Below are positions 9,547-29,950 of a stretch of 64,000 nucleotides of DNA, piece after piece. The position numbers and the translations under genes are program-made. The stretch is from an uncultured Bacteroidales bacterium (lineage in GTDB: Bacteria; Bacteroidota; Bacteroidia; Bacteroidales; VadinHA17). The notes under the pieces were generated by a model that was not told the DNA's origin, did no database searches, and saw nothing but the letters and a program-made list of their open reading frames with translations. The stretch lies in NCBI GenBank assembly GCA_963737255.1, contig CAVTSB010000003.1, positions 1,255 through 65,254 on the forward strand. The letters are read 5' to 3'. The stretch's first letter is position 1, and each line of letters begins with the position of its first letter.

Positions 9547-9617
9547 TAGCCTCAACTGATTATCCTTAATTAAACTGTTAATTTCTTATGCAACTTTTAA
9601 TCAATATACTCTAAACC

Positions 9618-10235
9618 ATGTTACAAGATAAGATTCCCATTCCAACTGATCATTTTTTTAAATTTCTTGCAATCTCTGGATTAGTTGCTACAATATACTG
9701 TGCATCCTTTCCATTAATTTTTATAACGCCTTATAATGACAAAATAGATGAACATAATTTGTTAGTCGCAGATCTTAAAGCAAAAGAAGGCTATCTTCTG
9801 GGAACTATTAGAGATTTAAAAGGTTATATACCAGATAGTTTAGAAAAGAATCAAATATTTTATTTCCTGAATCTAGGTGATGTCTCAGATACATGCTATT
9901 ATATAAACCTGACTGTTGATTCTTCATTAAATCGGCATATAAAAGAGCTTAATAAGAATTATTTTGAATTAGCAAGGACTAGGTTTAGTTCTGGGGTAAT
10001 GCATGTTTCTATGGATGTGGATTCAAAAAATTTGAAGATTCATGAAATATTAACTTATTTATGCGGATTCCTCGCTTTTGGCTTGACAATTTGGGGAATG
10101 TTCTTATGGTATCGATATCAGAAGAAACTTGATGGTTACCAAATGAAGGTCGACAATCACCAACGATTACTTATCCGTAAGCTTGAACTTGAAATAAAAG
10201 CCCTTGAAAAAAATAATGAGAACACGATTTTATAA
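9618..10235 (+). CDS. hypothetical two-TM membrane protein with C-terminal coiled coil
   Basis: The ORF has hydrophobic segments FLAISGLVATIYCASFPLIFI and ILTYLCGFLAFGLTIWGMFLWY. I recognise no family. Confidence 0.5.
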   Translation: MLQDKIPIPTDHFFKFLAISGLVATIYCASFPLIFITPYNDKIDEHNLLVADLKAKEGYLLGTIRDLKGYIPDSLEKNQIFYFLNLGDVSDTCYYINLTVDSSLNRHIKELNKNYFELARTRFSSGVMHVSMDVDSKNLKIHEILTYLCGFLAFGLTIWGMFLWYRYQKKLDGYQMKVDNHQRLLIRKLELEIKALEKNNENTIL

Positions 10236-10401
10236 GATTAGTGACCCAAGTAATAGCTATTCGGATTGCTCTCATTATGTTTTATCACAGTATTTTATAA
10301 TTACGATAATCAAGTAGTTTTAAGTGTATGATTTGTGAAGTGAACAATTCTGTTATAACAATAAACAATTAATAATTAAGATAATGAAAGGAGATTGAAC
10401 T

Positions 10402-11340
10402 ATGTACACCAAAATTATGAATTGGTCCATAAAAGGACTCAAACTGAAATTATTTTGTTTGTTACTGCCAATGAGTCTTCTATTGGTATCATGCAGCAAA
10501 CCCTTTTATCCGGGTAAATCTGATCCGCTATTGAAGACGATGCAGGCATGTTCAATGGAATGGGGTACGAAAGTAACAGCTAAGATTACTGCAAAATTTG
10601 AAGACCTTAAAAAGGGCGGAGTAGTTGAATGGGAGGCCGCAAGGGAAGCCGGCGGAATCTTGTTAAAAGACTTCAAGAACGATTCGATAAAAAAAGAGGT
10701 TTATGATAAATATATTAATTGCATTAAACCTGCTATTGAGAAATTAATATCCTCTGATCAACGGCCAACGGTTGTATTAATCGGATCTAAAGAGGATTAT
10801 ACAACTTATAAGATGAAGGACTTAGAGCAAACCAGTGTAGAATTGTTGCAGAAGAGATTTGGAAACTTCAATGTTTTACCATTCACTGTTAGTTACATTT
10901 GGGACAATGAAGAGTCGATACGTGAAGTCAAGCCGGCAGTCATTGTAATTCATGCTTCCGCATTTCATAATGATCAGCACAAGGACGAAGCGATATCTAA
11001 ATTTCAAGCCCTCATATTGTCTTTGTATGGATTGTCTGAAACAAAATTTTTGGTATTCTCGCGCCTTCCAGAAGAAAATCCTTCTCCTGATCTCTGTCAG
11101 AGATGGAACCGTCAAGTAGATTTCTTGAGTGGAAAAAAATTCCGCAACCGTCTAATTTTCTACCCGATGCCTGGGGAAGAATCAAACTTTACAGGTAAAG
11201 CAGGGATTGAAGTCAGCCAAATAGTAAGATGCTTAAGTGGATTAGAAGCAACGAGTTACAGTTCAGTTTACTTACGTGAAATTGAAAAAGAAGCGCAGCA
11301 ACGGATACTTAATAGTTCATGCACCCTAGTGAGACGTTAG
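10402..11340 (+). CDS. hypothetical lipoprotein
   Basis: The ORF has a signal and lipobox (LLLVSCSK). I recognise no family. Confidence 0.5.
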   Translation: MYTKIMNWSIKGLKLKLFCLLLPMSLLLVSCSKPFYPGKSDPLLKTMQACSMEWGTKVTAKITAKFEDLKKGGVVEWEAAREAGGILLKDFKNDSIKKEVYDKYINCIKPAIEKLISSDQRPTVVLIGSKEDYTTYKMKDLEQTSVELLQKRFGNFNVLPFTVSYIWDNEESIREVKPAVIVIHASAFHNDQHKDEAISKFQALILSLYGLSETKFLVFSRLPEENPSPDLCQRWNRQVDFLSGKKFRNRLIFYPMPGEESNFTGKAGIEVSQIVRCLSGLEATSYSSVYLREIEKEAQQRILNSSCTLVRR

Positions 11341-11470
11341 AACACCAAAATAACATGTAACTCAGGCAGACCGAGCAATTGCTAGTAATTTTAAGGGCTC
11401 GTTTGTAGTGTCGGGATATTAGGTTAGGGTTGAAGTTGAGAATCCTATTTCCGTAAGTTCTTAGGTGTTC

Positions 11471-11722
11471 GGGTTGCTCTCTTTATGTTGCATTGCAGAA
11501 ATGCTTAGGTAATAGGTATGCAACATAAATCGCAACCCTCACTATTGATTAATGCGAGCCTGCTGCATCCAATTTTAATCGGCAATTCGTGGGTTTGCAA
11601 GAAGCAATATTTCATGACACAGCAAGGCCAAGCCCTTCGGGTTACTGCGTAAGCCTTGCTTTAGTCATTAAATACCCCCACTTACATTTGCCGAAAATTG
11701 TCTGCTACTCGCGACGGCTCGC
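11471..11722. ncRNA. candidate structured RNA region (nested helices, class unknown)
   Basis: Hairpin 11471-11538 pairs GGGTTGC/GCAACCC and TTATGTTGC/GCAACATAA. A second domain at 11554-11722 has P1 GCGAGCC/GGCTCGC, P2 AATTTT-CGGCAA/TTGCCGAAAATT, and hairpin 11614-11668 with an 8+5 bp stem and a CCC-UUCG-GG tip. Confidence 0.35.
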
Positions 11723-12239
11723 CTGATAATTAATTCTCGATTTTATTTCAATGTCCAATAAATGTTAAAGGAAATAGGTTTTTTGGCTATGATGTTCAGG
11801 ATTAGAGCCAGTTCTAACCCATCTTAATCATAAATGCTTGTTTAATTGGTATTAGCCTGTATTTCAATAATATACGTATTATTGAATTTGGCAAATAAGG
11901 CCATTCCCAGCCCGTTTAAGACCCGATCTCCCTTTTCCTGGTATCTACCTATTTCTGAAATGCAAAGTGTCCTAAAATGCATTATATCAAGCAAATACGC
12001 GATTTTGTCATTTCTGACATTATATAACAGATTGTATTAATGTATGTTATTGTAATAATTGACACAGGGAATTTGGGAACAGAATTACGGAATAATAATT
12101 CATTACAGTCTTAGGATATCAATCAAAGGATAATAGTAAAATATTTCTGCGATTTTCACTTCCCTATTCTCCAGATATTGCCTAATTTCGATCAACGTAG
12201 AAAGTCAGACAATTGCATCAAGCATTGGAAGTGTTGAGG

Positions 12240-12470
12240 TTTGAAGGGAAGTGGCTGTTGTGACTGACCAGGCAGTGCTATAATAAAACCGTTATGGCAC
12301 AATTATGCCACATAACTGTTTGAAAAGGTGACTGATCTAAGCCATATCCAGGAGTTGCTGGGGCATAAGAGCAGCAGGGCAATTTTGATTTATACTCATG
12401 TATACGACTCAGAGCATACAGAAGATCAGTTGTCCGTTTGATGATCTTTAAGGAAGTTGAAAAAAGGACC
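12240..12470 (+). pseudogene. tyrosine recombinase/integrase, C-terminal fossil with stop and frameshifts
   Basis: AIIKPLWHNYAT*LFEKVTDLSHIQELLGHKSSRAILIYTHV corresponds to the family pattern HxLRHSFATHLLExGxDLxxIQxLLGHxSxxTTxIYTHV. The terminal SPFDDL-like CPFDDL lies in another frame. Confidence 0.7.
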
Positions 12471-12680
12471 ATCATTGAGAATATTTGGTATAAAAGATGA
12501 GTTACTTTAATATGAGTAATAGGAACGTAGATTTTCCGGGTTAGGAATTCTATAACTATAAATTCAACTCATGTGGACAGAGTTTACAACACCACAGAAA
12601 TAAAGCTACATTTTGATGATTTATAACCAGTTAGCAAAAATTTGTGATAATCATTAGAGTTTAATTTAACCCCTAAAGAA

Positions 12681-13901
12681 ATGAAAACAAAGCTTCTAAT
12701 TTTAACAATGATCCTGTTATGTTCCTGTGGCAGCAAAAGCACTCATGATAATAACAACTCTTTTATCAAAATCGACCTCTTTTCAGAGCCCTCATCTGTG
12801 ATTTCAAATCTATCTGACATCGCCTCTAATGTAGAATATGTTCCTCTTCAAACTTCTGAAAATTCTATGGTTTCTACAATTTCTAATGTGAAAACCAACG
12901 GCGATATAATAATTGTATCTAGTTTTAGTTTTAGTAATCCTGAATTAATTTGTTTCGATAGAAATGGGCGTTATCTTAAAAAATTAAGCAAATACGGCAG
13001 AGGACCAGGAGAATACTTTGTTATTGGAGATTTTGATATTAACTATAAAGCAAATATTCTTGTATTGTTATCAAACACCATTATAATGGTATATGACATT
13101 ATAGGGAACGAATTTGTTTTTAATAAGTCTTTGAATTATAACTCAACTTACTACAATCGAATTGATAAAATTAATTTTATTCCAGGTCAAAATAATATTT
13201 TACTTTCATACTTAAGCACTACGTTTGAAAAATTTCGAAATCTAGTAATCAACCTTAATGGAGATACACTTGATACCAGACTCAATAATTACAAATTCAC
13301 AATTGATCCAACTCAAGGAAAGGAACAACAGGTTCTTGCGTCACCCTATGAAAACATAAGTTACAATTATAATAATTCCCTGCATTTTAGAGACTGGTTC
13401 TCTGATACAGTCTTTACAATTGGTCAATCAAATAGTATCATTCCCTATTTAAGGTTTAATTCAAATGGCAAGCAATTTAATCCGGATGATTTGGCTAAAT
13501 TATATGTTTTGCAACATAGTGGAGGTAGTTATCCAGATGATTATGTTACAGTTGATTTTATTATGGAAAGTCCGCGATATATAGTTTACAACTATACATA
13601 TAAAAAGGCAACTATTTATGAATTACATGATAAGGTAATGAATAAAAAAATTGGAATTAGGACCAAACCTTTCTTAGAAGATGATATTACGGGCGGACTA
13701 AATGTTGAGCCTAAATTAAGTTTCAATGGCAAATTGTATTCCTGGGTTGAAGCAATCGATTTGAAGAACCATGTTTCAAGCGAGGAATTTAAGACTTCAG
13801 TTGTAAAAAATCCTAAAAAGAAACAAGACTTAGAAACATTGGCTAACACACTTAAAGAAACTGATAATCCGGTTCTAGTTGTAGTGACTCTTAAAAACTG
13901 A
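12681..13901 (+). CDS. 6-bladed beta-propeller lipoprotein (BF3164-like family), paralog A
   Basis: It has a lipobox (LLCSCG) and the shared motifs SDIASNVEYVPLQTS, GRGPGEYF and C-terminal ETDNPVLVVVTLKN. Confidence 0.7.
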   Translation: MKTKLLILTMILLCSCGSKSTHDNNNSFIKIDLFSEPSSVISNLSDIASNVEYVPLQTSENSMVSTISNVKTNGDIIIVSSFSFSNPELICFDRNGRYLKKLSKYGRGPGEYFVIGDFDINYKANILVLLSNTIIMVYDIIGNEFVFNKSLNYNSTYYNRIDKINFIPGQNNILLSYLSTTFEKFRNLVINLNGDTLDTRLNNYKFTIDPTQGKEQQVLASPYENISYNYNNSLHFRDWFSDTVFTIGQSNSIIPYLRFNSNGKQFNPDDLAKLYVLQHSGGSYPDDYVTVDFIMESPRYIVYNYTYKKATIYELHDKVMNKKIGIRTKPFLEDDITGGLNVEPKLSFNGKLYSWVEAIDLKNHVSSEEFKTSVVKNPKKKQDLETLANTLKETDNPVLVVVTLKN

Positions 13902-14332
13902 TCATCCCGATAGAAATAAAACAAAACTTTTGCTAACACGGATGGTATGGGTAATTGCCTTCAGCAGCCCGGACAGTTTGGTAATCAGCTCCAAAAGTCT
14001 ATGCGATGTAAATTCAGTATCACTTATTAAACTTTGTGTACCATGACTACTCCTGCTACCGAGACAAAGTCAATAGGGCTGCTGGCCGACGCGCAGTTGT
14101 CATGGTTTTTGCATCGCCAACTTAGACAGTTTTATCGTGACGGGACAAATCCTGCCCATCTACCGGGACTCAGCCATCTGGACAACTTTATCTGGACGAG
14201 AAAACTCTACGTCCGTCTACCGGGACTTTGCAAAAACTCATGCCAACCCTGACACAGACGGCAACTCCCTATACCACCGGGCCGTTAGCAATCATACGAG
14301 ACAATACACATTCCCATATAATATAAACTATT

Positions 14333-15064
14333 ATGCAGCAGATTGATTGGAATAAATGGCTAACATTAATTGCAACATTGGCTCTATTTGTTGCTATTCT
14401 AATACCATTAATTCAGAAAAAATATGAAGAAAGAAAAGCTAAAACTAGCTTTCAGATGTATCTCAAAAAATATTTTGGGATACTCTTTAATATACTAACT
14501 TACGACAAAATTGAATATACAAAGCCATCTGCAAAGGATTCCCCAGAAAAACTTCAATTATCATTTGGTGATTATATTAACAAGTTCGAGATAGACTTAA
14601 AAGAAAATCGAAATACAGTTCAATTTAGAGTCGCATTTTCAATTATTTTCAATCTTCAAAACTTACTATTTGTAATTCACCGGATTCAACTAGCAATTAA
14701 GCAAACTGATACAAATAAATTATATGAGCAAACTCTTGAATATGGGAACAGCCTGACTAAAAAAGAATTAAATAAAATATATGCAATTCTACTATTAATG
14801 GAGCATTTCACATCGGTTACCTCATTTCATGACAGGTTTGGGTCGATGAAATCTATTCAGCGAGAGAATAATGAAGAAGTATGGATTGGGCTAAAAGTTG
14901 ATCAAAAATTATTAAAAAACCAACAATTAATTCTAGAGGATTTTCAACACTTAAACAATGATGAATCAAGTATTCATGAAATAGTAAATATTAGCAAACT
15001 ATTGTTACAGGAAGTTAAAATCTTCTACGAATTTGAGAAACTAATGAAGAAGAAAAGAAAATAG
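14333..15064 (+). CDS. hypothetical membrane-anchored helical protein
   Basis: The ORF has one N-terminal TM segment (WLTLIATLALFVAILIPLI). I recognise no family. Confidence 0.45.
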   Translation: MQQIDWNKWLTLIATLALFVAILIPLIQKKYEERKAKTSFQMYLKKYFGILFNILTYDKIEYTKPSAKDSPEKLQLSFGDYINKFEIDLKENRNTVQFRVAFSIIFNLQNLLFVIHRIQLAIKQTDTNKLYEQTLEYGNSLTKKELNKIYAILLLMEHFTSVTSFHDRFGSMKSIQRENNEEVWIGLKVDQKLLKNQQLILEDFQHLNNDESSIHEIVNISKLLLQEVKIFYEFEKLMKKKRK

Positions 15065-15082
15065 TACAATTGCTGATACATA

Positions 15083-15120
15083 GGGCTTCATAAGGTGCGA
15101 AGCACCCAGTAATGAAGCCC
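15083..15120. repeat. conserved compound hairpin module, copy 1
   Basis: GGGCTTCAT-aa-GGTGC-gaa-GCACC-cagta-ATGAAGCCC lies directly downstream of the ORF ending at 15064. Confidence 0.8.
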
Positions 15121-15366
15121 ACATTGAAGTAAATCCCTTCCATGTCTTTAATATGGGGATTCAATGGGATCTTTTAATGATTGTTTATTTACGACACAAA
15201 GGAAGCCTTGAAAAAGATCCTGACAATCTTTCGGAAGATGCAGAGGTGTTCCTTAATTGCGGCTTTTAGTGAAAAGAACTGGGTAAACTGCCTGTTTCAT
15301 AGATTGGTTTTTTAATTTATCGGCTGAAGGAGTATCTAAGGATGCTCGTTTAAGTGTTTTTGTCCA

Positions 15367-15528
15367 TTTTCGACCTCACAGGAGCTGTTTTGAGGCATTT
15401 TGGTGGGCATGGAGTACTTATACCGGAATTTGCGGCATGTAGTAATGTTTCCGGGAAAAACCGCCATTATCGGGAAAACAATTAAAACCGGCAAGAATTC
15501 AGACAGTTTGTTAGACAGACTGCCGTTA
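15367..15528. repeat. 162-bp dispersed repeat, copy 1 (ends in the box TTAGACAGACTGCCGTTA)
   Basis: It aligns without gaps to 21478-21639. I counted about 13 mismatches in 162 positions by eye. Confidence 0.9.
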
Positions 15529-15569
15529 TAGGCAAGCACGAGGCTAATCACTACTTAAATTACCTGATT

Positions 15570-16817
15570 ATGATCTTAGACTTAGAGAAGCAGCTAGCAA
15601 AAAGCAAAAGCTACACATTTATAGTAGTTATGATCCTCTTAATTATAACCGTTAGTTGTGTTCCACCAACTAAAAAAGTTGATACACTCAAGGCAAAAAA
15701 TTCTTTCTACAAAATTGATGTAGCTAATCTAATGAATAAGCAAAGAGAGGTATATCTTTCCGAAATTGCTGATTCAATTGAGTATGTACCATTAGAAACC
15801 TCAAAAATCTCATTACTCGACTTTATTTTTGATGCTCAATTTACCAAAGATTTTATTTTTATTCATCAAGCTAAGGGTCCCCTAGCGCAGTTTGACAGGT
15901 CAGGGAAGTTTATCCGATACATTAGCCGAATTGGAAGGGGACCTGAAGAATACGGACTAATAAGGGAATTCAGCGTAGATGAAGTCAATCGCAATATTTT
16001 CATTCATTCGAATTATACCAGAACAATTAACATTTATTCCTTTGAAGGGGAATTTTTAAGAACCGTCAGATATCCAGACGATTATGGGAATATTGTGTGG
16101 AGCAGAGATAGTTTATTCATGTGCTTTAGTGAACCTAAAATGGGAAAAGAAGAAACTGTTTTTGATGAAAGAAATAGTAAGGGTGAAATTATTCAATCAA
16201 TTAAAAACCATTTTTTCTGGCAAAATAACAGCAATTATAGTTTTATGTCTGGGTTTAATGTAAGGAATGTATTTTACAGACTTCATAATACACTCAACTT
16301 CAAAGGTTGGTATAATGATACAGTATACACTTTCAGTGACGACAATAAATTCATTCCTAAGTTTCTTTTAGAACTTAGAAATAATAAATTGCCAGATCAA
16401 TTAAGACCGGAAGTGACACAAAAGCCCGTGAGTTCTCCTGAGTTCTATTGGGCTAGTGTTAAGGAATCATCTAGATTTGCTTTCATTATTTATGGCACCT
16501 ATGCAGATAAAAATTTACGAATTATTGATATTGGTCTAATCTGCTATGATAAATTGAATGCGACTGGTTTTTCTGTTTTAAACAAAAATGAGAAGTCTGA
16601 GTTCATAAATGACTTGGATAATGGGCCTGATTTTGAACCTGAATACATAAATGATTCATTGGCATTCTGTTTCATATCAGCTTCGAGGTTTTTAAGATTT
16701 CTAAAAACAGATAGTCCCCACGTAAATAATGACAAGAAGGAGATTCTTATTAACAAGTTCAAGAAATTAGAAGAGAGCGATAATCCTATATTAATGAAAG
16801 TAAGATTAAAGCTATAA
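15570..16817 (+). CDS. 6-bladed beta-propeller lipoprotein, paralog B
   Basis: It has a lipobox (ITVSCV) and the motifs SEIADSIEYVPLETS, GRGPEEYG and C-terminal ESDNPILMKVRLKL. It is closest to paralog D. Confidence 0.7.
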   Translation: MILDLEKQLAKSKSYTFIVVMILLIITVSCVPPTKKVDTLKAKNSFYKIDVANLMNKQREVYLSEIADSIEYVPLETSKISLLDFIFDAQFTKDFIFIHQAKGPLAQFDRSGKFIRYISRIGRGPEEYGLIREFSVDEVNRNIFIHSNYTRTINIYSFEGEFLRTVRYPDDYGNIVWSRDSLFMCFSEPKMGKEETVFDERNSKGEIIQSIKNHFFWQNNSNYSFMSGFNVRNVFYRLHNTLNFKGWYNDTVYTFSDDNKFIPKFLLELRNNKLPDQLRPEVTQKPVSSPEFYWASVKESSRFAFIIYGTYADKNLRIIDIGLICYDKLNATGFSVLNKNEKSEFINDLDNGPDFEPEYINDSLAFCFISASRFLRFLKTDSPHVNNDKKEILINKFKKLEESDNPILMKVRLKL

Positions 16818-16979
16818 TCAAATTATTATAGAATGAAGACCTTTAAATCAGACTACACAAAGAGACAAAAAAACATTCGTCTACCATGACAAATTGTGGA
16901 AGCCTGCCTATAACGGACGATAAAAGTCATTTTTTTGTCACGGTTTTTGCGGGCTTCCTCTTTCTAGCAAGTTTATCAT

Positions 16980-17290
16980 CCTAAGTTGTACCCGGATACG
17001 CTCATCTGCCCGCTACCAAAATTCTGCACCATGACAAATATATGGCTCCGACCCAATTTGTACCGCGACACTGCACCAACGGCTTCGAACAAGTTACTGC
17101 ACCATGACAGATACCGGTCACCCGCAAGTTTGTACCGCGATTACGCCTGCACGCCATAAAAATTGTACCATGACGGCAAAAACCGCGCCATGCTTCGCTC
17201 CCGACGGCCTTAGTAAAACCGTGATGAAAACGCGAAATCCTGCCGACGGCCCCCGGTCGCTCAGCAACAAAAACGCCTTCTATTGCCGGG
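16980..17290. repeat. GC-rich degenerate tandem repeat with roughly 35-bp period
   Basis: Successive units start AAnTT.TGYACC(AT/GC)GAC at about 17018, 17055, 17091, 17126 and 17158. Confidence 0.6.
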
Positions 17291-17294
17291 CCGT

Positions 17295-17403
17295 CAGTCT
17301 GTCTAATAACTAAAATGAAGCCCCTGAGAATTGAATATTTGAAATTTTTTGTGTATAGGTATCCAAAGAAATGAGTAAGCAAAATGGGTTATTAGACAGA
17401 CTG
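17295..17403. repeat. 16-bp perfect inverted repeat with a 77-nt loop
   Basis: CAGTCTGTCTAATAAC at 17295-17310 is the exact reverse complement of GTTATTAGACAGACTG at 17388-17403. Confidence 0.9.
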
Positions 17404-17502
17404 CCATTAGCAATAAGGCAATTTCAGTACGCAAATTTCAAATACAAATAATATCCTCTAGACAATAGTCAAGACTTAGATAGATTCAAAGAATCTTCAA
17501 AA

Positions 17503-19886
17503 ATGCTTATTAAAATGTTTAAAAATTATTTTAAATCAGCATTCAGTTTTTGGAAACATAACAAAATATTTGCATCCATAAATGCAATGAGTTTGTCAAT
17601 AGCACTTGCCATTTCTTTCATTATTATGCTTTATGTTGTAAATGAGTATAGTTATGATAGATGCCATGCAAATCATAAAGGATTTTCAGGGTTCTTAACT
17701 ATTATGTCGATTATAAGAAATCATATACAGAAACTCCATACGTTTTAGCCTCAGCACTAAAAGCTGAGTATCCCCAGGTTGAAAAATCCATATCTGTAAT
17801 ATCCAAAGCTAGCATAATAATAAAAGTTGAAGATGAAGATTTTACTGTATCTGATGCAGTTTTTACTAATTCTGAAGTTTTTGACATTTTCACACTTCCA
17901 ATTGTAAAGAAAGTACAACAAGGAGACCTTATGGAGGATAAAAATTCAATTGTCATTTCCCAGGAGTTAGCAAAAAAAATCTTCCCGGGACAGGATCCAA
18001 TCGGAAAGAGAATCACAATTAGTTCATCAGATGGAGATTTACAATTTTTTGTCAAAGCTGTTTTCAGGGATATCCCTTTGAATTCGACTTTCAAAGCTCA
18101 ATGTCTTTTTAGTAGTAAACTGATTATTGAAAACCTTAACAAAGCTTATAATGTTACAAATTCAGACAAGGACTGGACCAAAAACTCATTTGTAACCTGG
18201 ATTTTACTATCAAAAAACTCTGATGCAAAGGAATTAGAAGAACAATTCCAGGCTTTTGAGCTTAAGAACCTTGGCCAGAATTCTCATTATCATTATTTAC
18301 TTCAAAATTTATCAAAAGTTTACCTGGGTTCTGAAAATATCGGAAATGCCGGAATAAAAGGCAATACAAAGAATATAAAATTATTTATTACAATCGCTCT
18401 TTTAATAATTCTCGTTGCTTCAGCAAATTATATAATCCTGTCTACTTCTGTTTCATCTGAGCGTATGAAGGAAATTGGGTTGCGTAAAACATTTGGAGCA
18501 AATAATCGTGAAATTAAATATCAATTATACATCGAGTCTGTTTTAATGGCAATAGGGATAATGCCGATCTCAATTTTAATTATGTGGTCAGCTCTCCCAG
18601 CCGCAAGCAAGTTGTTCCAGACACCTATACAAATATTACCCTCAAACATACCGGCTTACATATTGATCTTCTTTACAATAACTTTGTCCATCGGTATTTT
18701 ATCCGGGGTATATATTTCCACAATCCTTTCAAGACTAGAGGTTACTAACATCATAAAGAAATCTATTCAAACAGGCAAAAGGAAAACTCTCCTACGCTCG
18801 TCGCTTATTGTATTTCAATTAATCATTTTTTGTTCTTTTGTATCATCCGTGCTCATTCTACACTCCCAATATCAATATGCAATTAAAAGAGATCCCGGAC
18901 ATTATAACAGTAACTTAATTATATTAAATCTTGGTCGAAATTTTAATGGATATTCAGCATTACTTAATGACCTTAAAGCTAATACTAATGTTATAATGGC
19001 TGCTGGATGTGCAGAATGCGTACCTATGCAGAATTCAGCAACAGGAATATACCAGAATTTCCAGGATAAAGAAGTTCGGGTACAAGTAGAGGCAATGTAT
19101 GTTGATTTCAATTTTTTGGAAACGTTGGGGATAAAACTGGTTGAGGGACGTTTTTTTTCCAAAGAATTTGGGAGTGATCAGACGCAATCTGTAATATTAA
19201 ACGAAACTGCTGTGAAGAAGTTAGGTATTGTAAATCCTGTTGGGCAAAAGATTGCAGGTTCGACTATTATAGGGGTTGTCGAGGATTTTAACCTTCATTC
19301 AATACATACAGAGATTCCACCAACAATGATTGAGTTGAAAAACGAAATTCATTGGCAGTTAGTTGTTCGTTATATGCCAGGTTCCTTTAAAAATGTCCTT
19401 CAGATGCTGGAGTCAGAATGGAAAAAATTTGATACCGGCCAGCCATTTAGTTATAATACAATTGAAGACCTGATTTCAGGCATATATTTATCAGAAAAGA
19501 AGTTGGGTATTTCAGTAGGTATTTATGCAATTATAGCAATTTTAATTGCTGCATCAGGATTATTTGGGTTAACTCTTTTTATTGCCAGAACCAGGACAAA
19601 AGAAATAGGAATAAAGAAAGTGTTTGGATGTTCTGAAAAATCAATTATTTACTCTTTTCTATGGGAAAACTTTGTCCTCGTACTTATAGCCGGATCAATA
19701 TCTATTCCTGTAACTCTTTATTTCATGACTAACTGGTTAAAGGATTTCGCTTATAAAATTAATATTAATTGGTGGGCATTAGTGATACCTTTTTTAATTG
19801 CTTTGATTATTGTTCAGTTGACCGTTTTTGTTTATTCATTCAACGTATCTAGAATCAATCCTGTTAACGCTCTGAAATACGAATAG
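17503..19886 (+). CDS. ABC transporter permease, FtsX/MacB-like, one frameshift as assembled
   Basis: ORFs 17503..17748 and 17931..19886 join if one A is added to the A-run at 17677-17679, giving HKRIFRVLNYYVDYKK. FtsX motifs are IGLRKTFGANNREI and IGIKKVFGCSEKSII. Confidence 0.8.
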
Positions 19887-19960
19887 CAATAAAAATTCTT
19901 TGTCTTTAATTAAATCTAAATTAACAGATTATATAAAATAGTCCTAACAGCTAATACATA

Positions 19961-19998
19961 GGGCTTCATACGGTGCGAAGCACCCAGTGGTGAGCCCC
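19961..19998. repeat. conserved compound hairpin module, copy 2
   Basis: GGGCTTCATACGGTGCGAAGCACCCAGTGGTGAGCCCC lies downstream of the FtsX stop. Confidence 0.75.
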
Positions 19999-20176
19999 GG
20001 TTGAAATAAATCTCAAAGGAAATTGAACTTTGTGGATATAAAGTGATGTTCCAGCCGTTTATCAGATTTTTGTTAAATGAACAGGAAAACTTCGGGGAAG
20101 AAATGTAAAGACAGACTCCCGTTAGCTGCAACAAATGTGCATAAGACGTGACTAATCAGCCTTTAATCCTTTTAAT

Positions 20177-21379
20177 ATGAAAGATTTATTCCCCCAAATG
20201 ATATTGCTTGATTTAAGGTTTATTAAGCTAGCATTATTGGCCATTTTGATTTGTTCATGTAACACATCTGATTCAAATCATTATGAGATCGATCCAAGAA
20301 CCTTTGGCGAGAATGATATTAAACTTTCAGATATTGCAGATGATATTACCTATATTCCCCTTGACAACAGCTTTCCGATAGCACTAGTCTATCATACTTC
20401 CATTAATATTTTGGAAAACTCGATATATCTATCAGCAAGGGATATAGGCATAATAAAATTTAACAGAAACGGAAAAATGCCTAAAGTAATAGGGAGGAGA
20501 GGTAGAGGCCCTGGAGAATGGCACTATTGCATGTCTGTTGCAGTAGACCCACGTAGTGAAACTATTTATGTAATGGACAATAGTAACGAAATTAAAGTTT
20601 ACTATAAAAGTGGAGTTTTTAAAGGTGCATTGAGATTACCAGGGAATGAAGATGGATTCGACTTCTCTCAAATAAATTTTTTTAATTCAAACCTTTTTGC
20701 TTCTCAATATATTAATATGGGACATGCAAAATATAACTGGATTATTATTGACACTCTAGGTAAAATAGTTACTTACAGATTTAATCCCATCCCAACATTC
20801 ACATCTAATATGGGGGGTAATGGTGGAATATTTAAATATGAAGATAAAATATCATACTGGGATTGGTATAATGACACAATCTTTACAATCTCTTCGGATT
20901 TAAACTATAAGGCATCTTATACATTTTCCTTTGGGGAAGGGAAAATCCCTCGAGATAAAATCCCGTCAAAAGATTTTTTCGACATTCTTTCTAAATATTA
21001 TCTAACAGCAAATATACTTGAGACAAAACGGTTTCTGTTATATATGTATGGACATAATAAAAGAGGGACACTGGCATTGATTGACAAAAAGACGAAAAAA
21101 AGTTATTTGACTCCAATTTTCGACGAAAAAGTTGATGGTATTTCTAATAATTTGGATGGAGGTTTGAAGTTTCTCCCTTTGTGTTATTTTACAGAAAATG
21201 AAAGAGAATATTTAATAAGTATCATTGACCCGTTCCAACTCAAAAAATATATCAATGGTGAGGAATTTATTAATTCAGCTTCTGAATTTCCACAAAAGAA
21301 AGGTTCATTAGTTAAGCTTGTAGAAAATGTAAAAGAGACTGATAACCCGATACTAATGCTCGTAAGATTAAAAAAATAA
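20177..21379 (+). CDS. 6-bladed beta-propeller lipoprotein, paralog C
   Basis: It has a lipobox (LICSCN) and the motifs SDIADDITYIPLDNS, GRGPGEWH and C-terminal ETDNPILMLVRLKK. Confidence 0.7.
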   Translation: MKDLFPQMILLDLRFIKLALLAILICSCNTSDSNHYEIDPRTFGENDIKLSDIADDITYIPLDNSFPIALVYHTSINILENSIYLSARDIGIIKFNRNGKMPKVIGRRGRGPGEWHYCMSVAVDPRSETIYVMDNSNEIKVYYKSGVFKGALRLPGNEDGFDFSQINFFNSNLFASQYINMGHAKYNWIIIDTLGKIVTYRFNPIPTFTSNMGGNGGIFKYEDKISYWDWYNDTIFTISSDLNYKASYTFSFGEGKIPRDKIPSKDFFDILSKYYLTANILETKRFLLYMYGHNKRGTLALIDKKTKKSYLTPIFDEKVDGISNNLDGGLKFLPLCYFTENEREYLISIIDPFQLKKYINGEEFINSASEFPQKKGSLVKLVENVKETDNPILMLVRLKK

Positions 21380-21412
21380 TCTACTAGTAAAAAATTGCAG
21401 CAGCTAATCCAT

Positions 21413-21440
21413 GGGGCTTTACACGGTGTGAAGCACCCGT
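21413..21440. repeat. conserved compound hairpin module, copy 3 (degenerate)
   Basis: GGGGCTTTACACGGTGTGAAGCACCCGT lies downstream of paralog C. Confidence 0.6.
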
Positions 21441-21477
21441 TATAGATTACAGGTTGTACTAAATCCATTCTGAAATA

Positions 21478-21639
21478 TTTTCGACCTCACAGTAGCTGTT
21501 ATGATGCGTTTTGGTGGGCATGGAGTACTTATACCGGAATTTGCGGCATGTTGTGATGTTTCCGGAAAAAACCTCCTTTATCGGGAAAACAATTAAAACC
21601 GGCAAAAATTCAGACAGGTTGTTAGATAGACTGCTGTTA
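21478..21639. repeat. 162-bp dispersed repeat, copy 2
   Basis: It aligns to 15367-15528 and ends in TTAGATAGACTGCTGTTA. Confidence 0.9.
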
Positions 21640-21854
21640 GCGGGCATTTGTCACAACCTCTGAACCACTGACTACCATATTATTACAATCTGACAATCTC
21701 TTTATATCAAGACAAATTCGACTGACCTGAAAGACACAAAAGGAAAATAAAAAACGCCCGCTAACTCCTCTTATTGAAATTCTAAATCCTTATGAATATA
21801 TTGCTATGACAATTTTCTTTTAATCTTGACTCTCTAAACTAAAAGTATGAACGC

Positions 21855-22892
21855 ATGAAAGTAAATGAAGTCCCTTTTATTGAAAACATTTTTATTGATA
21901 CCTCAATTTTTGAAGACCAAAATTTCTTTCATGGTAGTAAAATCCGCAGCCTGCTCCACTATTCAAACCTTGAATTTATTTCAATTTTCATGACAACGAT
22001 ATCTAAAATGGAATTAATTAATAGAATGAAAACAAGGTTAGAGAACTGTAAATCTGACTATAATAAATTAATAAAGGAACTTAACAATCATGAACAAAGA
22101 ATTTTAAAAAACATTGACATCTATGATCTAATCCAAGTTCCATTAATAACTGTAAATAGCAGTCTCCAGAGACTTATCAATAAGCTTGAAACTAATATTA
22201 ATGCCAATAAAATTAAAATTATAAATACTGAAAACTTAGCAGCAGAGGACGTATTTAATCGTTATTATAATAACATGCCTCCATTTGGGCCTGGTAAGAA
22301 AAAGTATGGATTTCCTGATGCATTTATCATAATGAGTTTGGAATCATGGTGTAAGAAAAATAGAAAGAAGATGCTTGTCTTAAGTAAAGACACTGACTTT
22401 CATAAATTTAAAAGCAGATACCTAATCTCCCAGGATAACATAACTGAATTGCTCCAGACTATTACTTTAAAATATGATTCATTTCAAGAGACACATATAC
22501 TCCCCACTATAAAGCAACTTTTAACCAAGTTCCATAAGGAATTGATTCAAGAGATTGAAAATCAAATTCAGGACAATGTCATACTAAAGACTGACTATGA
22601 AAAAACTGGTAACTTCAAAATTGAAAAGATGAATTTCTTGTCTGAGAAGGTAACCTCAATTAGAGACACTTACGCTGAAGTGGAAATAATGATGGAGGTG
22701 ACTAGTAGCATGACTGTTTTCCCAAGCCCTCAAGACATAGACCGTGCAATATTTGAAGACAAAATATCAAAACACAAACTTGTTCAACACATTTCGGTGC
22801 CAATAGACATTGAAGTTTACTATACGAGAGAGCAAACTGTTAAAATTAAATGGATCAACACCAATGAACCATTGGTTATCGAATACTATTAA
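21855..22892 (+). CDS. PIN-like domain protein (DUF4935-like)
   Basis: The N-terminal IFIDTSIFEDQNFF and the central GFPDAFIIMSLESW...VLSKDTDF resemble the PIN-like DUF4935 pattern as I remember it. Confidence 0.5.
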   Translation: MKVNEVPFIENIFIDTSIFEDQNFFHGSKIRSLLHYSNLEFISIFMTTISKMELINRMKTRLENCKSDYNKLIKELNNHEQRILKNIDIYDLIQVPLITVNSSLQRLINKLETNINANKIKIINTENLAAEDVFNRYYNNMPPFGPGKKKYGFPDAFIIMSLESWCKKNRKKMLVLSKDTDFHKFKSRYLISQDNITELLQTITLKYDSFQETHILPTIKQLLTKFHKELIQEIENQIQDNVILKTDYEKTGNFKIEKMNFLSEKVTSIRDTYAEVEIMMEVTSSMTVFPSPQDIDRAIFEDKISKHKLVQHISVPIDIEVYYTREQTVKIKWINTNEPLVIEYY

Positions 22893-23155
22893 TAAAAAAA
22901 CACTCCGCTAACTCGGACAATATGAGTAAGTTGTTTGTCACACTTTTTGCCCCGCCAAGGCGGGATTTCGTCTCCGCCTGTTGGCGGATCCTCAACTTTT
23001 GCTCCAGCACCCATGACAATTTTCTGGCTTTAGTACCATCCCGAGTACTCGGGACTGTCCAGCGCTGTCGTCGGGTAACACAACCTCCCTTTATTGTTGG
23101 GCTGTTAGGTTCAATTTACGTCGTATAAAGAACAAACAAACTCATTGAACAATAA

Positions 23156-24424
23156 ATGAATAGAATATTTTTCTTTTTCATGATCATTCTGACTTTCGGA
23201 TGTAATTCCCAAAATGGACAAAGAAATAAATTCGGTGATATTCAAGTAGACAGTCCATTCTACACAATCGACTTTCCTGCAATACTTGAAAATAAAAGGG
23301 AGGTACCAATTTCTGAAATAGCTGAAAATATAACCTATATTCTCCTCGAATCCACTGGTGAATCAGCATTAGGTAGAATTCATGATGCAAAGTTCACCAA
23401 GGACTATATATTCATTCATGCTTATGGGACACCTCTCCTTGCTCAATTTGATGTAAAGGGTAAATTTTTGCGATACATAGGGAAAATTGGCAAAGGCCCT
23501 GAAGAATATGATCTGATCCGGCAATTCAGTGTTGATGAAAAAACAGGGTTAATTTATATACAACCTAATAGGGTAAGGAATATTCAGGTCTATTCCTTCA
23601 CGGGTAAATTTGTAAAGACAATTAAGATTAATCGTGACGAAAGAGCAATCGTTTGGTGTAGAGACAGTTTATTTTTGTGTTATAGTGAGCCCTCAATTGG
23701 AAATGAAGAATATGTTTTCAAAGAAACAAACTCTCTTGGCGAAATAAGGCAAACGGTAAAAAACTACTACCAATGGAAAGATCCGCCTCCATTTGGGCGG
23801 ATGATGAGTTACCCGGGCCAACATTTCTTTTATCATCTTGACAATCGCCTTCATTTCAAGGGAGTCTATAACGACACAGTTTATTCATACAACAAAAACA
23901 GTAAGATTATTCCTAAGTTTTCAGTAGACCTCGGAAAATACAAGTTACCTGAAGAAATGATATTTGAACGTGGTTTAGTACGACGAATACCTCCTAAATA
24001 TTTGTGGGCTTGTGTCAATGAATCCGCAAACTATGTCTTCATCTATTATTCTGCTTATGATACTGATGATACTCAAGGACCAGGACATGGGCCCCTGGAG
24101 GCCGGATTTATGATTTATAATAAAAAAGAAGGTAAAGGAACTTCCATTAGGAGTAAAGATGGCAAAATGATTTTATTCAATAATATAGGTGATTGGGGAT
24201 TTATAAATGATATTGATGGAGGACCTGAATTGATACCTGAATACATCAATGATTCTTTGGCTTTTCGATTTATAAGTTCAATTGCGATGAAAAAATATCT
24301 TATGTCGGACGAATTCTTAAACTCAACACCAAAGGATCAAACTAAAAAAGCGATGCTTATTAACCAGATGGTTGGACTAAAAGAGACTGATAACGATCTG
24401 TTGATGATTGCTAAGTTGAAATGA
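23156..24424 (+). CDS. 6-bladed beta-propeller lipoprotein, paralog D
   Basis: It has a lipobox (LTFGCN) and the motifs SEIAENITYILLEST, GKGPEEYD and C-terminal ETDNDLLMIAKLK. Confidence 0.7.
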   Translation: MNRIFFFFMIILTFGCNSQNGQRNKFGDIQVDSPFYTIDFPAILENKREVPISEIAENITYILLESTGESALGRIHDAKFTKDYIFIHAYGTPLLAQFDVKGKFLRYIGKIGKGPEEYDLIRQFSVDEKTGLIYIQPNRVRNIQVYSFTGKFVKTIKINRDERAIVWCRDSLFLCYSEPSIGNEEYVFKETNSLGEIRQTVKNYYQWKDPPPFGRMMSYPGQHFFYHLDNRLHFKGVYNDTVYSYNKNSKIIPKFSVDLGKYKLPEEMIFERGLVRRIPPKYLWACVNESANYVFIYYSAYDTDDTQGPGHGPLEAGFMIYNKKEGKGTSIRSKDGKMILFNNIGDWGFINDIDGGPELIPEYINDSLAFRFISSIAMKKYLMSDEFLNSTPKDQTKKAMLINQMVGLKETDNDLLMIAKLK

Positions 24425-24615
24425 GCTTTGACTTTGTATCCTATCTCCCTAAGAATTGAGCGTCCTATATCGCTTAATAACAGGTAAATACAGCATTTAT
24501 AATAATTAATCTACGATCTAACTAATTATATATCATCACTATATATCTATGCAACATAGCCTGGGATTTTAATTCCGGGCTTTTTTATTTCTACTAACCC
24601 TTAAATCAAATAAAT

Positions 24616-24906
24616 ATGAAAACACGACAGACAAATATATCTGAAGTAAGACTTGTTTACAGAACAAAAGTCAAAGCTTCAGAGAGACTTAAGGTTAAAT
24701 GCTTAAAGAATGCCTTTGACATATTTATGGAAAGTTGGGACCTGGATTCCATCGAACATATTGAAGAGTTTAAGCTCATGTTACAGCGGGCGCAGCAAAT
24801 GAAATTTTTGGGCGAACTTGCAATAAAAAGACAAGGATATAATTCTACCGATGGGGATAAATCCTTTTGGGATAGTGTTGCATTTCGGTTGTGTTCATAT
24901 CTATAA
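24616..24906 (+). pseudogene. RadC-like JAB-domain protein, truncated fossil
   Basis: The first roughly 55 aa (ISEVRLVYRTKVKASERLKVKCLKNAFDIFMESWDLDSIEHIEEFKLML) match the N-terminus of RadC-like proteins from Bacteroidetes mobile elements. The HNHPSG metalloprotease core is missing. Confidence 0.6.
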
Positions 24907-25179
24907 GTTTTAGTTTATAATAGGGTAAAGGTATAATGTATAAATGAATGTAATAAATTAAATATCAATTATATAGTTGCTTTTTATCAACAAAATTAGT
25001 GACATTTATCAGTGATGCAAGGGTTATTTTGCAGTAATAGTGATACGCGTGTACAGGATTTGAGGCCAGGCGGCTGCGGAATTTTGGAAGTATCAGAAAA
25101 TAATAAATAATGATTCTAAATAACTTTTATCCTGGACTCTCTTAAATTTGATCTAATTATTTACCATAAGATCATAACT

Positions 25180-25842
25180 ATGTTGACGAATGATTGCCTG
25201 TCAGATTGGTTTAAGGATTTAAGTAAGATCATATTTGATACCAAAATATCAATTGACAACATTAGAAGAATAACACACCCAGAAGATGACATTGAAGAAA
25301 AAGTTTTAAAACATGGCTTTTTTTCGCATTGTTATCGTCAATCACGATTTACTATTATTGTACAATTGTGTAAAATTTTTAATAAAACCAGTAACCAAAA
25401 AAGAAATTTCTATAAACTCTTCAATCGACTTTCTATTGACAAATATGATAAGACTATTACAGATATCCTGAAAGAAAACGAATCATCAAACCATGCATTT
25501 GCTAATTGGGGTAATCTTGAAAGATCGGGTTTATTCACAAACAGAGTTGACATTGTAAATGAAATAAATTCGCTGATGAGTGAAATTGAAATTCAAAAAG
25601 GAATAATAGAACGAATTCTTGTTCTTAGAGACGGTCAATATGCTCACTCTGATCCTGATTCCAGATTACCAAATGTATCAAATCAAGAATTAGAAATTCT
25701 AATTAATCTGGCAATCAAAATTTATAACAACTTATATGGTAAATTTTATGATACCACACTGGTATTTGCCCATACTATTGACTGGAAAATTGATTATCCA
25801 ATTAAAGCTTTAGCAAAAATTAGGAGGGAAAGACTTAAATAA
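25180..25842 (+). CDS. HEPN-like (AbiU2-like) protein, putative
   Basis: The protein looks all-helical and carries an Rx5H motif in LVLRDGQYAHSD. The family assignment is from memory only. Confidence 0.4.
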   Translation: MLTNDCLSDWFKDLSKIIFDTKISIDNIRRITHPEDDIEEKVLKHGFFSHCYRQSRFTIIVQLCKIFNKTSNQKRNFYKLFNRLSIDKYDKTITDILKENESSNHAFANWGNLERSGLFTNRVDIVNEINSLMSEIEIQKGIIERILVLRDGQYAHSDPDSRLPNVSNQELEILINLAIKIYNNLYGKFYDTTLVFAHTIDWKIDYPIKALAKIRRERLK

Positions 25843-25983
25843 ATCCTCTTCAAATTTCATTATTATATGTACTTGTTAGGCCAGTTAGTTTCCTGTTGTA
25901 GATTTGTTGAAGGTTTCAGAAAAAATAAAAAGTGCAATTATCTGTATTTCAAGGTAATTGCACTATGAAGCACGACTGTTTCG

Positions 25984-26057
25984 TGATTCCGGCGCGATTC
26001 GAACGCGCGACCCACAGCTTAGAAGGCTGTTGCTCTATCCAGCTGAGCTACGGAACC
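25984..26057 (-). tRNA. tRNA-Arg (anticodon TCT)
   Basis: The 74-nt cloverleaf reads GGTTCCG TA GCTC AGCTGGATA GAGC A ACAGC CTTCTAA GCTGT GGGTC GCGCG TTCGAAT CGCGC CGGAATC A. No CCA is encoded. Confidence 0.95.
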
Positions 26058-26065
26058 AATATTTT

Positions 26066-26158
26066 ATTCAGAACGCACGACCCATCCCGAAGCCTCGGGA
26101 TTGCTCTATCCTCCCGTCCCGATAGCTATCGGGAGCTATCGGGATGAGCTACGGAACC
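26066..26158 (-). pseudogene. degenerate tRNA-Arg duplicate with palindromic insertions, lacking the 3' acceptor/T-arm half
   Basis: It shares GGTTCCGTAGCTCA and GGATAGAGCAA with the intact tRNA. A 33-nt insertion containing the palindrome TCCCGATAGCTATCGGGA sits in the D loop. The anticodon arm is replaced by the TCCCGAGGCTTCGGGA hairpin. Confidence 0.7.
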
Positions 26159-26262
26159 CTTCACGATGCCGGCTGCAAAAATACATTATTTTTCAATTTC
26201 ATCAATGTGAATTGTTCTGAAACACTCGTGCCGGCAGTCCCGAAGTTTTGCTCAGTATTATA

Positions 26263-26760
26263 TCATACTGACTTCATGTAATTTACAAGACCCTTTTTGT
26301 CGATTATCTCCCTGAGCTTATCCGGAAGAGGATCAAACTCGAACCTGTTTTTCCCAACAATGATTTCCCCTCTTTCAAGTCTTATCTCGACATTATCTCC
26401 CGGTCTGTAAGCCTCAACAGCTTCCTTATGCACAAAAAGCGCCAGCCCCTGGTTTATTGATGACCTGTAAAAGATCCTGTTCACCGATTTCACGATCACA
26501 GCCTGTACACCGGCATACGCAAGTCCTACCGATGGATGCTCCCTGGAGCTGCCACAGCCAAAATTCTCGCCCGCGATGATTATGTCACCTGCCTTCACCC
26601 CGGAACTGAACGAAGGATCAAAATCCTCAAAAAGATGTGGAATAATCGATGCCGGATCAGAGCTTAAAACATTGTAAGTGTATTTTCCCGGAAACATCTG
26701 ATCGGTATTCAGGTTGTCAACATCCGAGTAGTTCCAGACAGTTCCGACCTCCTGTTCTCT
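26263..26760 (-). CDS. aconitase-family small subunit (LeuD-like, short archaeal type), pair 1
   Basis: GDIIIAGENFGCGSSREHP is present. The frame is open upstream through VGTVWNYSDVDNLNTDQMFPGKY, and the start codon is unclear. Confidence 0.7.
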   Translation of the reverse strand, partial: REQEVGTVWNYSDVDNLNTDQMFPGKYTYNVLSSDPASIIPHLFEDFDPSFSSGVKAGDIIIAGENFGCGSSREHPSVGLAYAGVQAVIVKSVNRIFYRSSINQGLALFVHKEAVEAYRPGDNVEIRLERGEIIVGKNRFEFDPLPDKLREIIDKKGLVNYMKSV

Positions 26761-28055: not shown

Positions 28056-28087
28056 TATGGTTTTGACAAAAGGGGATCCCGGATTCA

Positions 28088-28600: not shown

Positions 28601-28619
28601 CTCCCGGCATTCCTGCCCT

Positions 28620-29901: not shown

Positions 29902-29950
29902 ATGCTCAAAATGTTTAATAATTGCGAAGATAATAAATATTTTGCAGAGA

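Follow-up and report, generated by a model that had tools for sequence, protein, structure and literature searches.

What sort of locus places a row of genes in one direction and parts them with long, structured spacers? Such a row lies at 12.3–24.4 kb of a 64,000-nt stretch of DNA (henceforth the window; positions 1,255 to 65,254 of contig CAVTSB010000003.1, assembly GCA_963737255.1) from an uncultured Bacteroidales bacterium of the VadinHA17 lineage. Among systems that store and reshuffle single genes through recombination of folded single-stranded DNA, only integrons are, to our knowledge, well understood, and a preliminary description of the region, made from the letters alone, had proposed an integron-like cassette array. 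The cassette-end logic and the folding of that proposal have stood; an IntI integrase and sites of attC size have not been found. The reading towards which we lean, without great assurance, is that the row belongs, in a decayed state, to a family of chromosomal gene-cassette arrays that works like an integron and resides in uncultured sediment and wetland Bacteroidales or Bacteroidia. The row itself is made of seven cassettes in the same direction, with module-specific repeats around a fixed GTTA/TAAC core.

In this anatomy gene modules alternate, in a single orientation, with large folded spacers (type A sites) whose two ends pair via a conserved stem. A gene module begins TTA-N6-A-N3 and ends N3-C-N6-TAA, the N6 and N3 of the two ends being complementary and specific to the module. 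This is the relation described for integrons, in which the bases after GTTA 5' of a gene are complementary to the bases before TAAC 3' of the same gene, and it was upheld when tested. Spacer families start exactly at TAAC or TAAT and stop exactly at GTTA, and therefore supply objective anchors for comparing the ends. The sites were curated (34 upstream, or R', and 49 downstream, or R''); automatic calling with loose regular expressions yielded many false sites and was dropped in favour of the curated list. Matches were scored at nine variable positions, 1–6 and 8–10 after the core, in 19 non-redundant cassettes from 7 contigs, 13 of them from independent contigs. Cognate ends agreed at a mean of 6.95 of 9 positions versus 3.08 for non-cognate ends, and none of 10^6 permutations reached the observed sum, so that the cognate assignment of gene flanks, once anchored, is the best of all; for the window alone it is the top of 720 permutations. 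The same measure applied to the flanks of 21 spacers gave no signal (p ~0.16), and the complementarity thus belongs to the gene modules. When the window was tested without anchors, taking the longest exact inverted match between 120-nt flanks in every upstream by downstream combination, only the first (10 nt) and third (12 nt) genes stood out, with an off-diagonal maximum of 11 in this AT-rich DNA and a trace p of ~0.05, and support from the window alone is marginal.

The series opens with a junction at 12630–12643 (GTTA GCAAAA A TTT; + strand, as are all array features below) that has no spacer module 5' of it and may in this resemble an attI junction. Cassette 1 (12631–13936) carries a DUF5128 six-bladed propeller lipoprotein (open reading frame, ORF, 12681–13901) between the ends TTAGCAAAA-A-TTT and AAA-C-TTTTGCTAA, which match at 6/6 bases of N6, show A/G at position 7 and match at 3/3 of the next three. 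Cassette 2 (14285–15076; ORF 14333–15064, a 243-aa membrane protein of no family) has the ends GCAATC-A-TAC and GTA-C-AATTGC (5/6, A/G, 3/3), and cassette 3 (15526–16913), with a second DUF5128 propeller lipoprotein (ORF 15570–16817), the ends TTATAGGCA-A-GC and GC-C-TGCCTATAA (6/6, A/G, 2/3). Cassette 4 (17407–19954), whose FtsX/MacB-type permease is split by a frameshift (17503–17748 and 17931–19886), has a weak pair (3/6, A/A). A third DUF5128 propeller lipoprotein (ORF 20177–21379) occupies cassette 5 (20122–21407), bounded by GCTGCA-A-CAA and TTG-C-AGCAGC (5/6, A/G, 3/3). It is followed by a mini-cassette with no ORF (21637–21765; ends GTTAGCGGGC-A-TTT and AAA-C-GCCCGCTAAC), which is joined with no spacer to a PIN_12 gene segment (21766–22911, ORF 21855–22892) ending in CTCCGCTAAC. 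Cassette 7 (23105–24424; ORF 23156–24424, again a DUF5128 propeller lipoprotein) has no recognisable downstream site, and we have placed the end of the array there for that reason.

All six inverted pairs that the preliminary description had quoted lie where it put them and have the identities it gave, and the sequence 5' of GTTA is indeed common to several sites. The pairs at 12630/13928 (10/10), 15523/16905 (12/12) and 20121/21400 are the ends of cassettes 1, 3 and 5, with 6/6, 6/6 and 5/6 matches in N6. For two others only part of the claim survived: the pair at 17406/19950 exists but is weak (3/6), and that at 21636/22905 exists but 21636 has a better partner in the inner site at 21762 (GTTAGCGGGC A TTT against GTTAGCGGGC G TTT). 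The last, 23104/24516, is unsupported since no spacer module follows 24516. The pair of cassette 2 (GTTA GCAATC A TAC at 14284 with GTA C AATTGC TGAT ending at 15077) had been missed.

Within the paired stretch one position behaves differently. The seventh base after GTTA (+11) is A in 33 of the 34 upstream sites, giving the upstream consensus CC/GTTA/G-N5-A, and the mirrored downstream base is C (G as reverse complement) in 34 of 49; the A/G combination occurs in 16 of 19 cognate pairs, and beyond it pairing takes up again for 2–3 bp. Were the two ends to pair, the A upstream and the C downstream would meet as an A.C mismatch in the top strand, and their complements as a T.G wobble in the bottom strand. 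The top-strand mismatch argues against a role in sense RNA, and the mirrored C, where a symmetrically bound duplex site would have T, argues against such a site. The wobble is the kind of feature that would let a structure-reading enzyme distinguish the strands. Among the candidates considered, a dif-like duplex site was ruled out by the position table of the 34 R' and 49 R'' sites, which has no conserved gene-side arm.

To what extent is this anatomy private to the window? A search of 185,579 species genomes for a degenerate pattern of the hairpin at one spacer end (D2) gave no exact match, and the same pattern matched 25 metagenome contigs of the Joint Genome Institute (L001–L025). Homologues of the PIN protein added three more contigs (L026, L033 and L034; an exact look-up of the protein gave no usable locus), and a transposase profile (see below) added 14 contigs of metagenome-assembled genomes (MAGs; L035–L048), mostly Bacteroidales, Bacteroidia or Rikenellaceae. 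One contig encodes a sorting domain of the type IX secretion system (T9SS). Other contigs repeat the anatomy, with co-directional ORFs (in L002, L014, L020, L026 and L038, as in the window) and spacers running from TAAY to GTTA. Their module ends pair in the same manner, upstream with downstream: GTTAGCACAC with GTGTGCTAAC and GTTAGGCAAA with TTTGCCTAAT in L002, GTTATGGGCAaTA with TAcTGCCCATAAT in L014, GTTATAAGCAaGCT with AGCcTGCTTATAAT in L038, and, in L026, GTTGGCTGTAaTTT with AAAcTACAGCCAAC around the PIN gene, GTTAGGTAA with TTACCTAAC around a 215-nt unit with no ORF, and GTTAGGTTTAaGATT with AATCcTAAACCTAAC in a further case. Cassettes lacking an ORF are thus known from L026 (215 nt) and from the window (125 nt). 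One MAG contig (L044; CAWDOL010000016.1, 324 kb), binned as Candidatus Aminicenantes, holds two type A sites together with the insertion sequence (IS) described below; either these crossed phyla by horizontal transfer or the contig is misbinned.

The comparison of related loci is most telling for the PIN_12 cassette, found in the window, L033 (92% aa identity) and L034 (81%). All three copies start exactly at (G)TTAGCGGGCA or (G)TTAGCGGGCATT, and what stands 5' of GTTA is the end of a miniature inverted-repeat transposable element (MITE), unknown sequence and a type A 3' end, one in each; orthologous cassettes therefore occur in three contexts with boundaries exactly at the core. The upstream core in these three pairs best with an inner TAAC 125 nt downstream (GTTAGCGGGC-A-TTT versus GTTAGCGGGC-G-TTT), and the unit so delimited is a mini-cassette with no ORF fused to the PIN gene after a site was lost. 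The L026 orthologue (63% aa identity) has a different self-complementary pair, GTTGGCTGTA/TACAGCCAAC, and its core is changed on both sides, to GTTG and CAAC. Distant PIN_12 homologues (45% identity) lie in compact defence islands with neither spacers nor such flanks and so served only as a negative control.

Type A sites are 200–390 nt long, GC-rich (~50% GC) and branched, and the window holds three. Spacer 1 (13934–14287, 354 nt; TAAC ACGGATGGTATGGG ... CCCTATACCACCGGGCC GTTA) is intact, as is spacer 3a of a second subfamily (16911–17293; nhmmer E 3e-97), which is more stable as bottom strand; spacer 6, of the second subfamily (22909–23107, 199 nt), has an internal deletion and matches model positions 1–91 and 282–397. 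Folding by eye had earlier failed for every spacer, yet the intact ones do fold end to end, and better on the bottom strand: spacer 1 reaches -68.9 kcal/mol (z -6.6) as bottom strand and -55.5 (z -3.5) as top strand, and in silico the bottom strand is the more stable in 7 of 7 sites, by 3–16 kcal/mol. Joining sites in silico to the 5' end of their own cassette, to mimic a free circle, gave a hairpin whose base closed with 12–15 bp. In the fold, a core stem formed by TAAC/GTTA and the module-specific bases is followed by an asymmetric internal loop, and this by a bulged second stem of 9–10 bp. In the closing stem (CGGATGGTATGGG.../...CCCTATACCACCG) pairing is kept through two-sided changes at five pairs among six sites like spacer 1 that are 66–86% identical. 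Between contigs, homology of type A sites begins at TAAC and stops at GTTAG, with unrelated genes on both sides; spacer 1, for instance, is 81–86% identical to sites in L026 and L008 whose flanking genes are unrelated. Profile searches with nhmmer over 317 kb of non-redundant sequence placed 36 of 36 hits on the cassette strand. A strand-specific motif, YACC(N2-3)GAC, is present in 1–8 copies per site (39 on the top strand, 0 on the bottom) in the three type A sites of the window and those of L026, L008, L043, L044, L022 and L037, at ~10 per kb against 0.3 per kb in the remaining window (~30x), and could represent accessory or arm-type binding sites. Plasmids of PLSDB gave no match to a type A site.

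The other spacers (type B) are a different matter. Taken at first as attC-like sites, they were rejected as such: they have no end-to-end fold, and their 5' part (TAATACATAGGGCTTCATAAGGTGCGAAGCACCC...GTTGAACTAAATCCC) proved to be the end of an IS91-family element. Spacer 2 (15074–15528) starts with ~125 nt of an oriIS-end remnant (TGATACATAGGGCTTCATAAGGTGCGAAGCACCC...) and closes with a 163-nt repeat (D1; 15366–15528) ending in the terminus AGACAGACTGCC/GTTA (D7; the slash marks the junction); spacer 4 (19952–20124) combines an oriIS-end remnant with the same terminus, and spacer 5 (21405–21639) a diverged remnant with the D1/D7 repeat. The 163-nt direct repeat recurs at 21477–21639 (92% identical), forms the 3' part of spacers 2 and 5 and has relatives among the spacer segments of L014; in all probability it represents a lengthened form of the MITE ending in AGACAGACTGCC. 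A complete MITE of ~110 nt, with 18-nt terminal inverted repeats (TCAGTCTGTCTAATAAC ... GTTATTAGACAGACTGCCA), sits at 17294–17406 between GGGCCG and TTAGC of spacer 3, and its right end is the D7 terminus, common to four window junctions and many metagenome junctions. In L038 (reverse-complemented, 3745–3795) tandem MITE-type termini stand 30 nt apart (...GACTCCC/GTTAGCGGTAAGGTTGTCAGACAGACTCCC/GTCAGG), an arrangement suggestive of an 'empty' cassette or of insertions nested at the core.

Only ~120-nt oriIS-end remnants and no IS91 transposase were found in the window; elsewhere the source element is complete. In L003, L015, L023, L024 and MAG loci a 381-aa IS91 transposase (NF033538, 385 bits) is encoded beyond the shared end on the opposite strand; it is a Y2 HUH enzyme with an N-terminal Zn-binding domain (L003, L015, L023, L024 and L035–L046), and in full elements the transposase ORF is overlapped by a tyrosine recombinase ORF of 212–274 aa. 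Gene-less type B spacers share their first ~170 nt with the full element. Its other end (...GGGATTTAGTTCAAC) abuts ACGGAC..., the start of type A, as CAAC/ACGGAC in eight loci, from which it follows that the element always enters the bottom-strand core at the G/TTA step and makes no duplication. The element has a double hairpin at its D2 end and a single one at the other, and IS91-family elements are described as having such double and single end hairpins and a tetranucleotide-type target (PMC13181058). The absence of target duplication, tetranucleotide-specific insertion and subterminal palindromes likewise place it among IS91 and ISCR elements, in a subgroup that carries the recombinase ORF upstream of tnpA; it differs from them in its target, G/TTA(G) and not CTTG/GTTC, and in acting as a parasite specific to the array sites, which it does not demonstrably drive. 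Gene pairs of IS91 transposase and integrase are annotated on Bacteroidota plasmids. The view that all spacers of the window are recombination sites therefore had to be given up: three of the six are IS91 or MITE remnants inserted at the core. Two different parasites thus home to the same phosphodiester step, G/TTA, one per arm of the core stem, and this step is a hot spot for breakage and joining.

How might such arrays work? We infer a single-strand mechanism, a crossover position and a type of enzyme from sequence features. In a free circular cassette the two module ends would close the type A site into one long hairpin, in which an asymmetric internal loop would lie between an R-box-like stem of 13–17 bp, with the bottom-strand T.G wobble, and an L-box-like stem. 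A recombinase would read the folded bottom strand by its shape and its GTTA core, exchange strands at G/TTA, and so leave the integrated cassette with the stem's 3' half as its leading end. We tentatively entertain, at somewhat lower confidence than the reading as a whole, that this is a second, independently organised capture platform, an analogue of the integron run by an enzyme other than IntI, possibly the IS-borne recombinase or the Y2 HUH transposase. The enzymology of the arrays may well differ enough for them to rank as a new system.

The window offers little to identify that enzyme. As the preliminary description had noted, a tyrosine recombinase fossil heads the array in the same orientation: a C-terminal remnant of ~55 aa (12292–12450; ..WHNYAT-stop-LFEKVTDLSHIQELLGHKSSRAILIYTHV..) with RHxxAT-like, LGH and YTHV motifs, 180 nt upstream of the first cassette junction. 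It is too short to classify. It shares 40% identity over 37 aa with the IS91-linked recombinase (tblastn); a search with the 54-aa fossil found no relative, and a three-frame translation of 11341–12480 no further recombinase remnants. A second, unrelated tyrosine-recombinase C-terminal fossil (..SKTSEIYTHITTKDFDQIKSPHDTLDL) was seen at ~2330–2450 of L026, between the upstream core of a cassette and its 400-aa gene. The head of the array in L038 and the flanks of those in L043, L044 and L045 contain ordinary metabolic or surface genes and no integrase, and the sole recurrent recombinase is the IS-borne one, of the Xer/XerA/IntI clade.

Several observations weigh against our reading and temper it. 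No intact recombinase is linked to any array head examined, the 16-kb array of L038 included, and the IS-borne recombinase matches the integron integrase model TIGR02249 in two stretches with 138–168 bits where the cut-off is 265; since the insertion region is left unmatched, it lacks the IntI insertion. The sites are 2–3x longer than any attC, the hairpin model gives no explanation for the YACC(N2-3)GAC repeats, and the compensatory changes in the closing stem are equally expected of transposon terminal inverted repeats. Neither a circular junction nor an empty site was observed. The PIN orthologue at 92% identity (L033) is followed by a different type A subfamily than in the window. Finally, L006 and L022, from different samples, are 99.6% identical over 5 kb (four genes and a degenerate IS copy, seen also in L011 and L012) and diverge completely exactly at the TAAC-side junction, between IS end and type A. 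Exchange thus seems to occur at the TAAC/ (R'') boundary too, unlike in a canonical integron, although L006 and L022 are weak evidence for it because an assembly chimera at a repeated IS is possible.

Of the other explanations, the main rival is rolling-circle mobilisation of the IS91 type, in which cassettes are non-autonomous IS91 units: the Y2 HUH transposase would nick G/TTAG beside hairpins, cutting the top strand at upstream junctions and the bottom strand at downstream ones, and the single-stranded circles would re-insert at other G/TTAG. Much of the layout is compatible with this. The autonomous element is a bona fide IS91 member by its NF033538 score and its Zn-binding and Y2 domains, and in the eight loci it inserts exactly at G/TTA(G); IS91 elements have a target tetranucleotide by oriIS, a similar one at terIS, subterminal palindromes and bottom-strand circles of single-stranded DNA (PMC13181058), a layout mimicked by TTAG at the start of a cassette and again after it; and exchange at the GTTA as well as the TAAC boundary would follow if either strand could be cut. 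The known ends of IS91, however, have local subterminal palindromes and do not pair over more than 1 kb, type A sites have no sequence similarity to the IS ends, and many arrays and contigs are devoid of the transposase. The IS moreover behaves like a parasite in that it interrupts type A sites in their 5' half, and neither module-specific complementarity nor a T.G wobble has a known role in IS91 transposition. On balance we consider this explanation unlikely.

Two further explanations fit the data poorly. One dispenses with mobility: MITE and IS debris would have accumulated in the intergenic hairpins of an ordinary gene cluster, and the repeats would serve the genes, for example through pairing of 5' and 3' untranslated regions or as terminators. 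It would account for half of the window spacers being IS91 or MITE remnants, for the resemblance of type A ends to terminal inverted repeats and for the marginal unanchored statistics of the window. We give it little credit, in view of complementarity that spans genes and not inserted elements, the A.C mismatch that sense RNA would have at the sole invariant position, the same ends on units with no ORF, PIN cassettes that change context exactly at the core, distant PIN_12 homologues in ordinary defence islands devoid of such flanks, and a strict single orientation of sites and genes that is unexpected for MITEs. The weakest, a duplex Xer system like pdif in which genes and spacers are two kinds of module between inverse copies of one duplex site handled by a host or IS-borne Xer-like recombinase, matches the alternation of gene and spacer modules between inverted TAAC and GTTA copies, the apparent exchange at both kinds of boundary and the clade of the recurrent recombinase, but strikes us as very improbable, for the gene-side arm varies freely and so holds no duplex binding site, two dif-like arms with a 6-bp centre are absent, complementary module ends are not required and T, not C, is predicted at the mirrored +11, and there are zero inverted modules among the 36 type A hits.

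Returning to the cassette-array reading, how close does it come to an integron? Like integrons, the arrays are co-directional and mostly of single-gene cassettes, some with no ORF; the core is GTT (GTTAG or GTTAT here, GTTRRRY in integrons) with the crossover position at G/TT; the 5' bases of a cassette are complementary to its own 3' inverse core; each site is an imperfect palindrome in which an unpaired spacer parts an R-box-like stem from a bulged L-box-like one, the sites fold better as bottom strand (in silico only) and those of an array are alike; and the cargo is rich in defence, toxin and surface proteins. Attack by specialised insertion elements is another shared trait: attC sites are targeted by IS1111-attC elements and group IIC-attC introns. 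The differences are as clear. Here the sites measure 200–390 nt and attC 57–141 nt, the paired cassette-specific stretch beyond GTTA extends over 9–13 nt instead of 4, an invariant A (mirror C) stands 7 nt after the core, strand-specific YACC(N2-3)GAC repeats are present, and exchange seems possible at the inverse-core boundary as well. No IntI was found, the sole recurrent recombinase lacking the IntI insertion, and the host clade is Bacteroidales; IntegronFinder surveys detected almost no integrons in Bacteroidetes (PMC9024848). With no IntI and no attC-sized sites, the array is by defining features not an integron; it seems to behave as one in every respect that sequence lets us read, as an analogue and not a member.

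Other known arrangements share less. The pdif (XerC/XerD) modules of Acinetobacter plasmids also alternate between inverse copies of a short core, but here there is no 28-bp XerC/XerD site (11-bp arms, 6-bp centre), inversions are absent, and one arm is unconstrained in sequence yet complementary to the far end of the module. Repetitive extragenic palindromic sequences (REPs), their mosaic elements (BIMEs) with RAYT, and MITEs are likewise structured intergenic repeats 3' of genes, and the 110-nt element at 17294–17406 is a true MITE. Type A sites, on the other hand, are ten times longer than REPs, strictly oriented (36/36) and free of target duplications, and their flanks carry complementary sequences specific to the gene, not the element. 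We found no description of such arrays in the literature, and the family is apparently widespread and undescribed.

The copy in the window is no longer active. We call it decayed because the recombinase at its head is a fossil, three of its six sites are parasite remnants and its last cassette has no site; in addition, one site is internally deleted and another is lost (the fused mini-cassette and PIN gene). The array is embedded in a low-GC island, with a G+C content of ~33% across 12.0–25.95 kb and ~42% outside, whose right edge is marked by a tRNA-Arg(TCT) gene (25983–26057, - strand), the sole match in an Rfam scan of 10–28 kb (E<=1). The nine co-directional ORFs reported earlier are all there, on the + strand within 12681–25842 with gaps of 170–690 nt. 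The final two (24616–25842) lie inside the island and outside the recognisable array: a 96-aa ORF of no family (24616–24906), whose earlier label of RadC fossil was not confirmed by any family match even at E<=1, and a 220-aa HEPN AbiU2 protein to its right. Left of the array, also at low GC, 7825–11340 encodes a 573-aa two-domain PLD-like nuclease (PLDc_2, with a weak DrmC-like match) and two familyless ORFs; this stretch may form a defence island that runs on into the array. A second, degenerate tRNA-like sequence directly upstream of the tRNA-Arg gene, at 26090–26160 (- strand), has a 5' part (GGTTCCGTAGCTCATCCCGATAG) 87% identical to the 5' end of tRNA-Arg and is seemingly interrupted by a ~30-nt palindromic insert (CCCGATAGCTCCCGATAGCTATCGGGA). 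Genes for the large and small subunits of aconitase/isopropylmalate dehydratase lie in pieces (144, 186, 158, 157 and 216 aa) at 26263–30078 (- strand); together with the split FtsX gene (17748/17931) these point either to many pseudogenes or to indel errors in the assembly.

What would such arrays mean for their hosts? The cargo seen so far (surface lipoproteins, PIN, HEPN, BlaR/BlaI and T9SS-sorted proteins) suggests a role in surface variation and defence. Current surveys find hardly any integrons in Bacteroidota, since they depend for detection on IntI and on attC sites shorter than 200 nt. The arrays of sediment and wetland Bacteroidales share the cassette logic of integrons, but their sites are three times as large, their conserved signature differs and they show no IntI. 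If our reading is true, cassette-based gene capture would be broader than present tools detect, and these arrays would provide a natural comparison for the evolution of strand choice and structure recognition. They would also link IS91-type elements that carry Xer/IntI-like recombinases to cassette sites, which would bear on the origin of integron cassettes and of attC.

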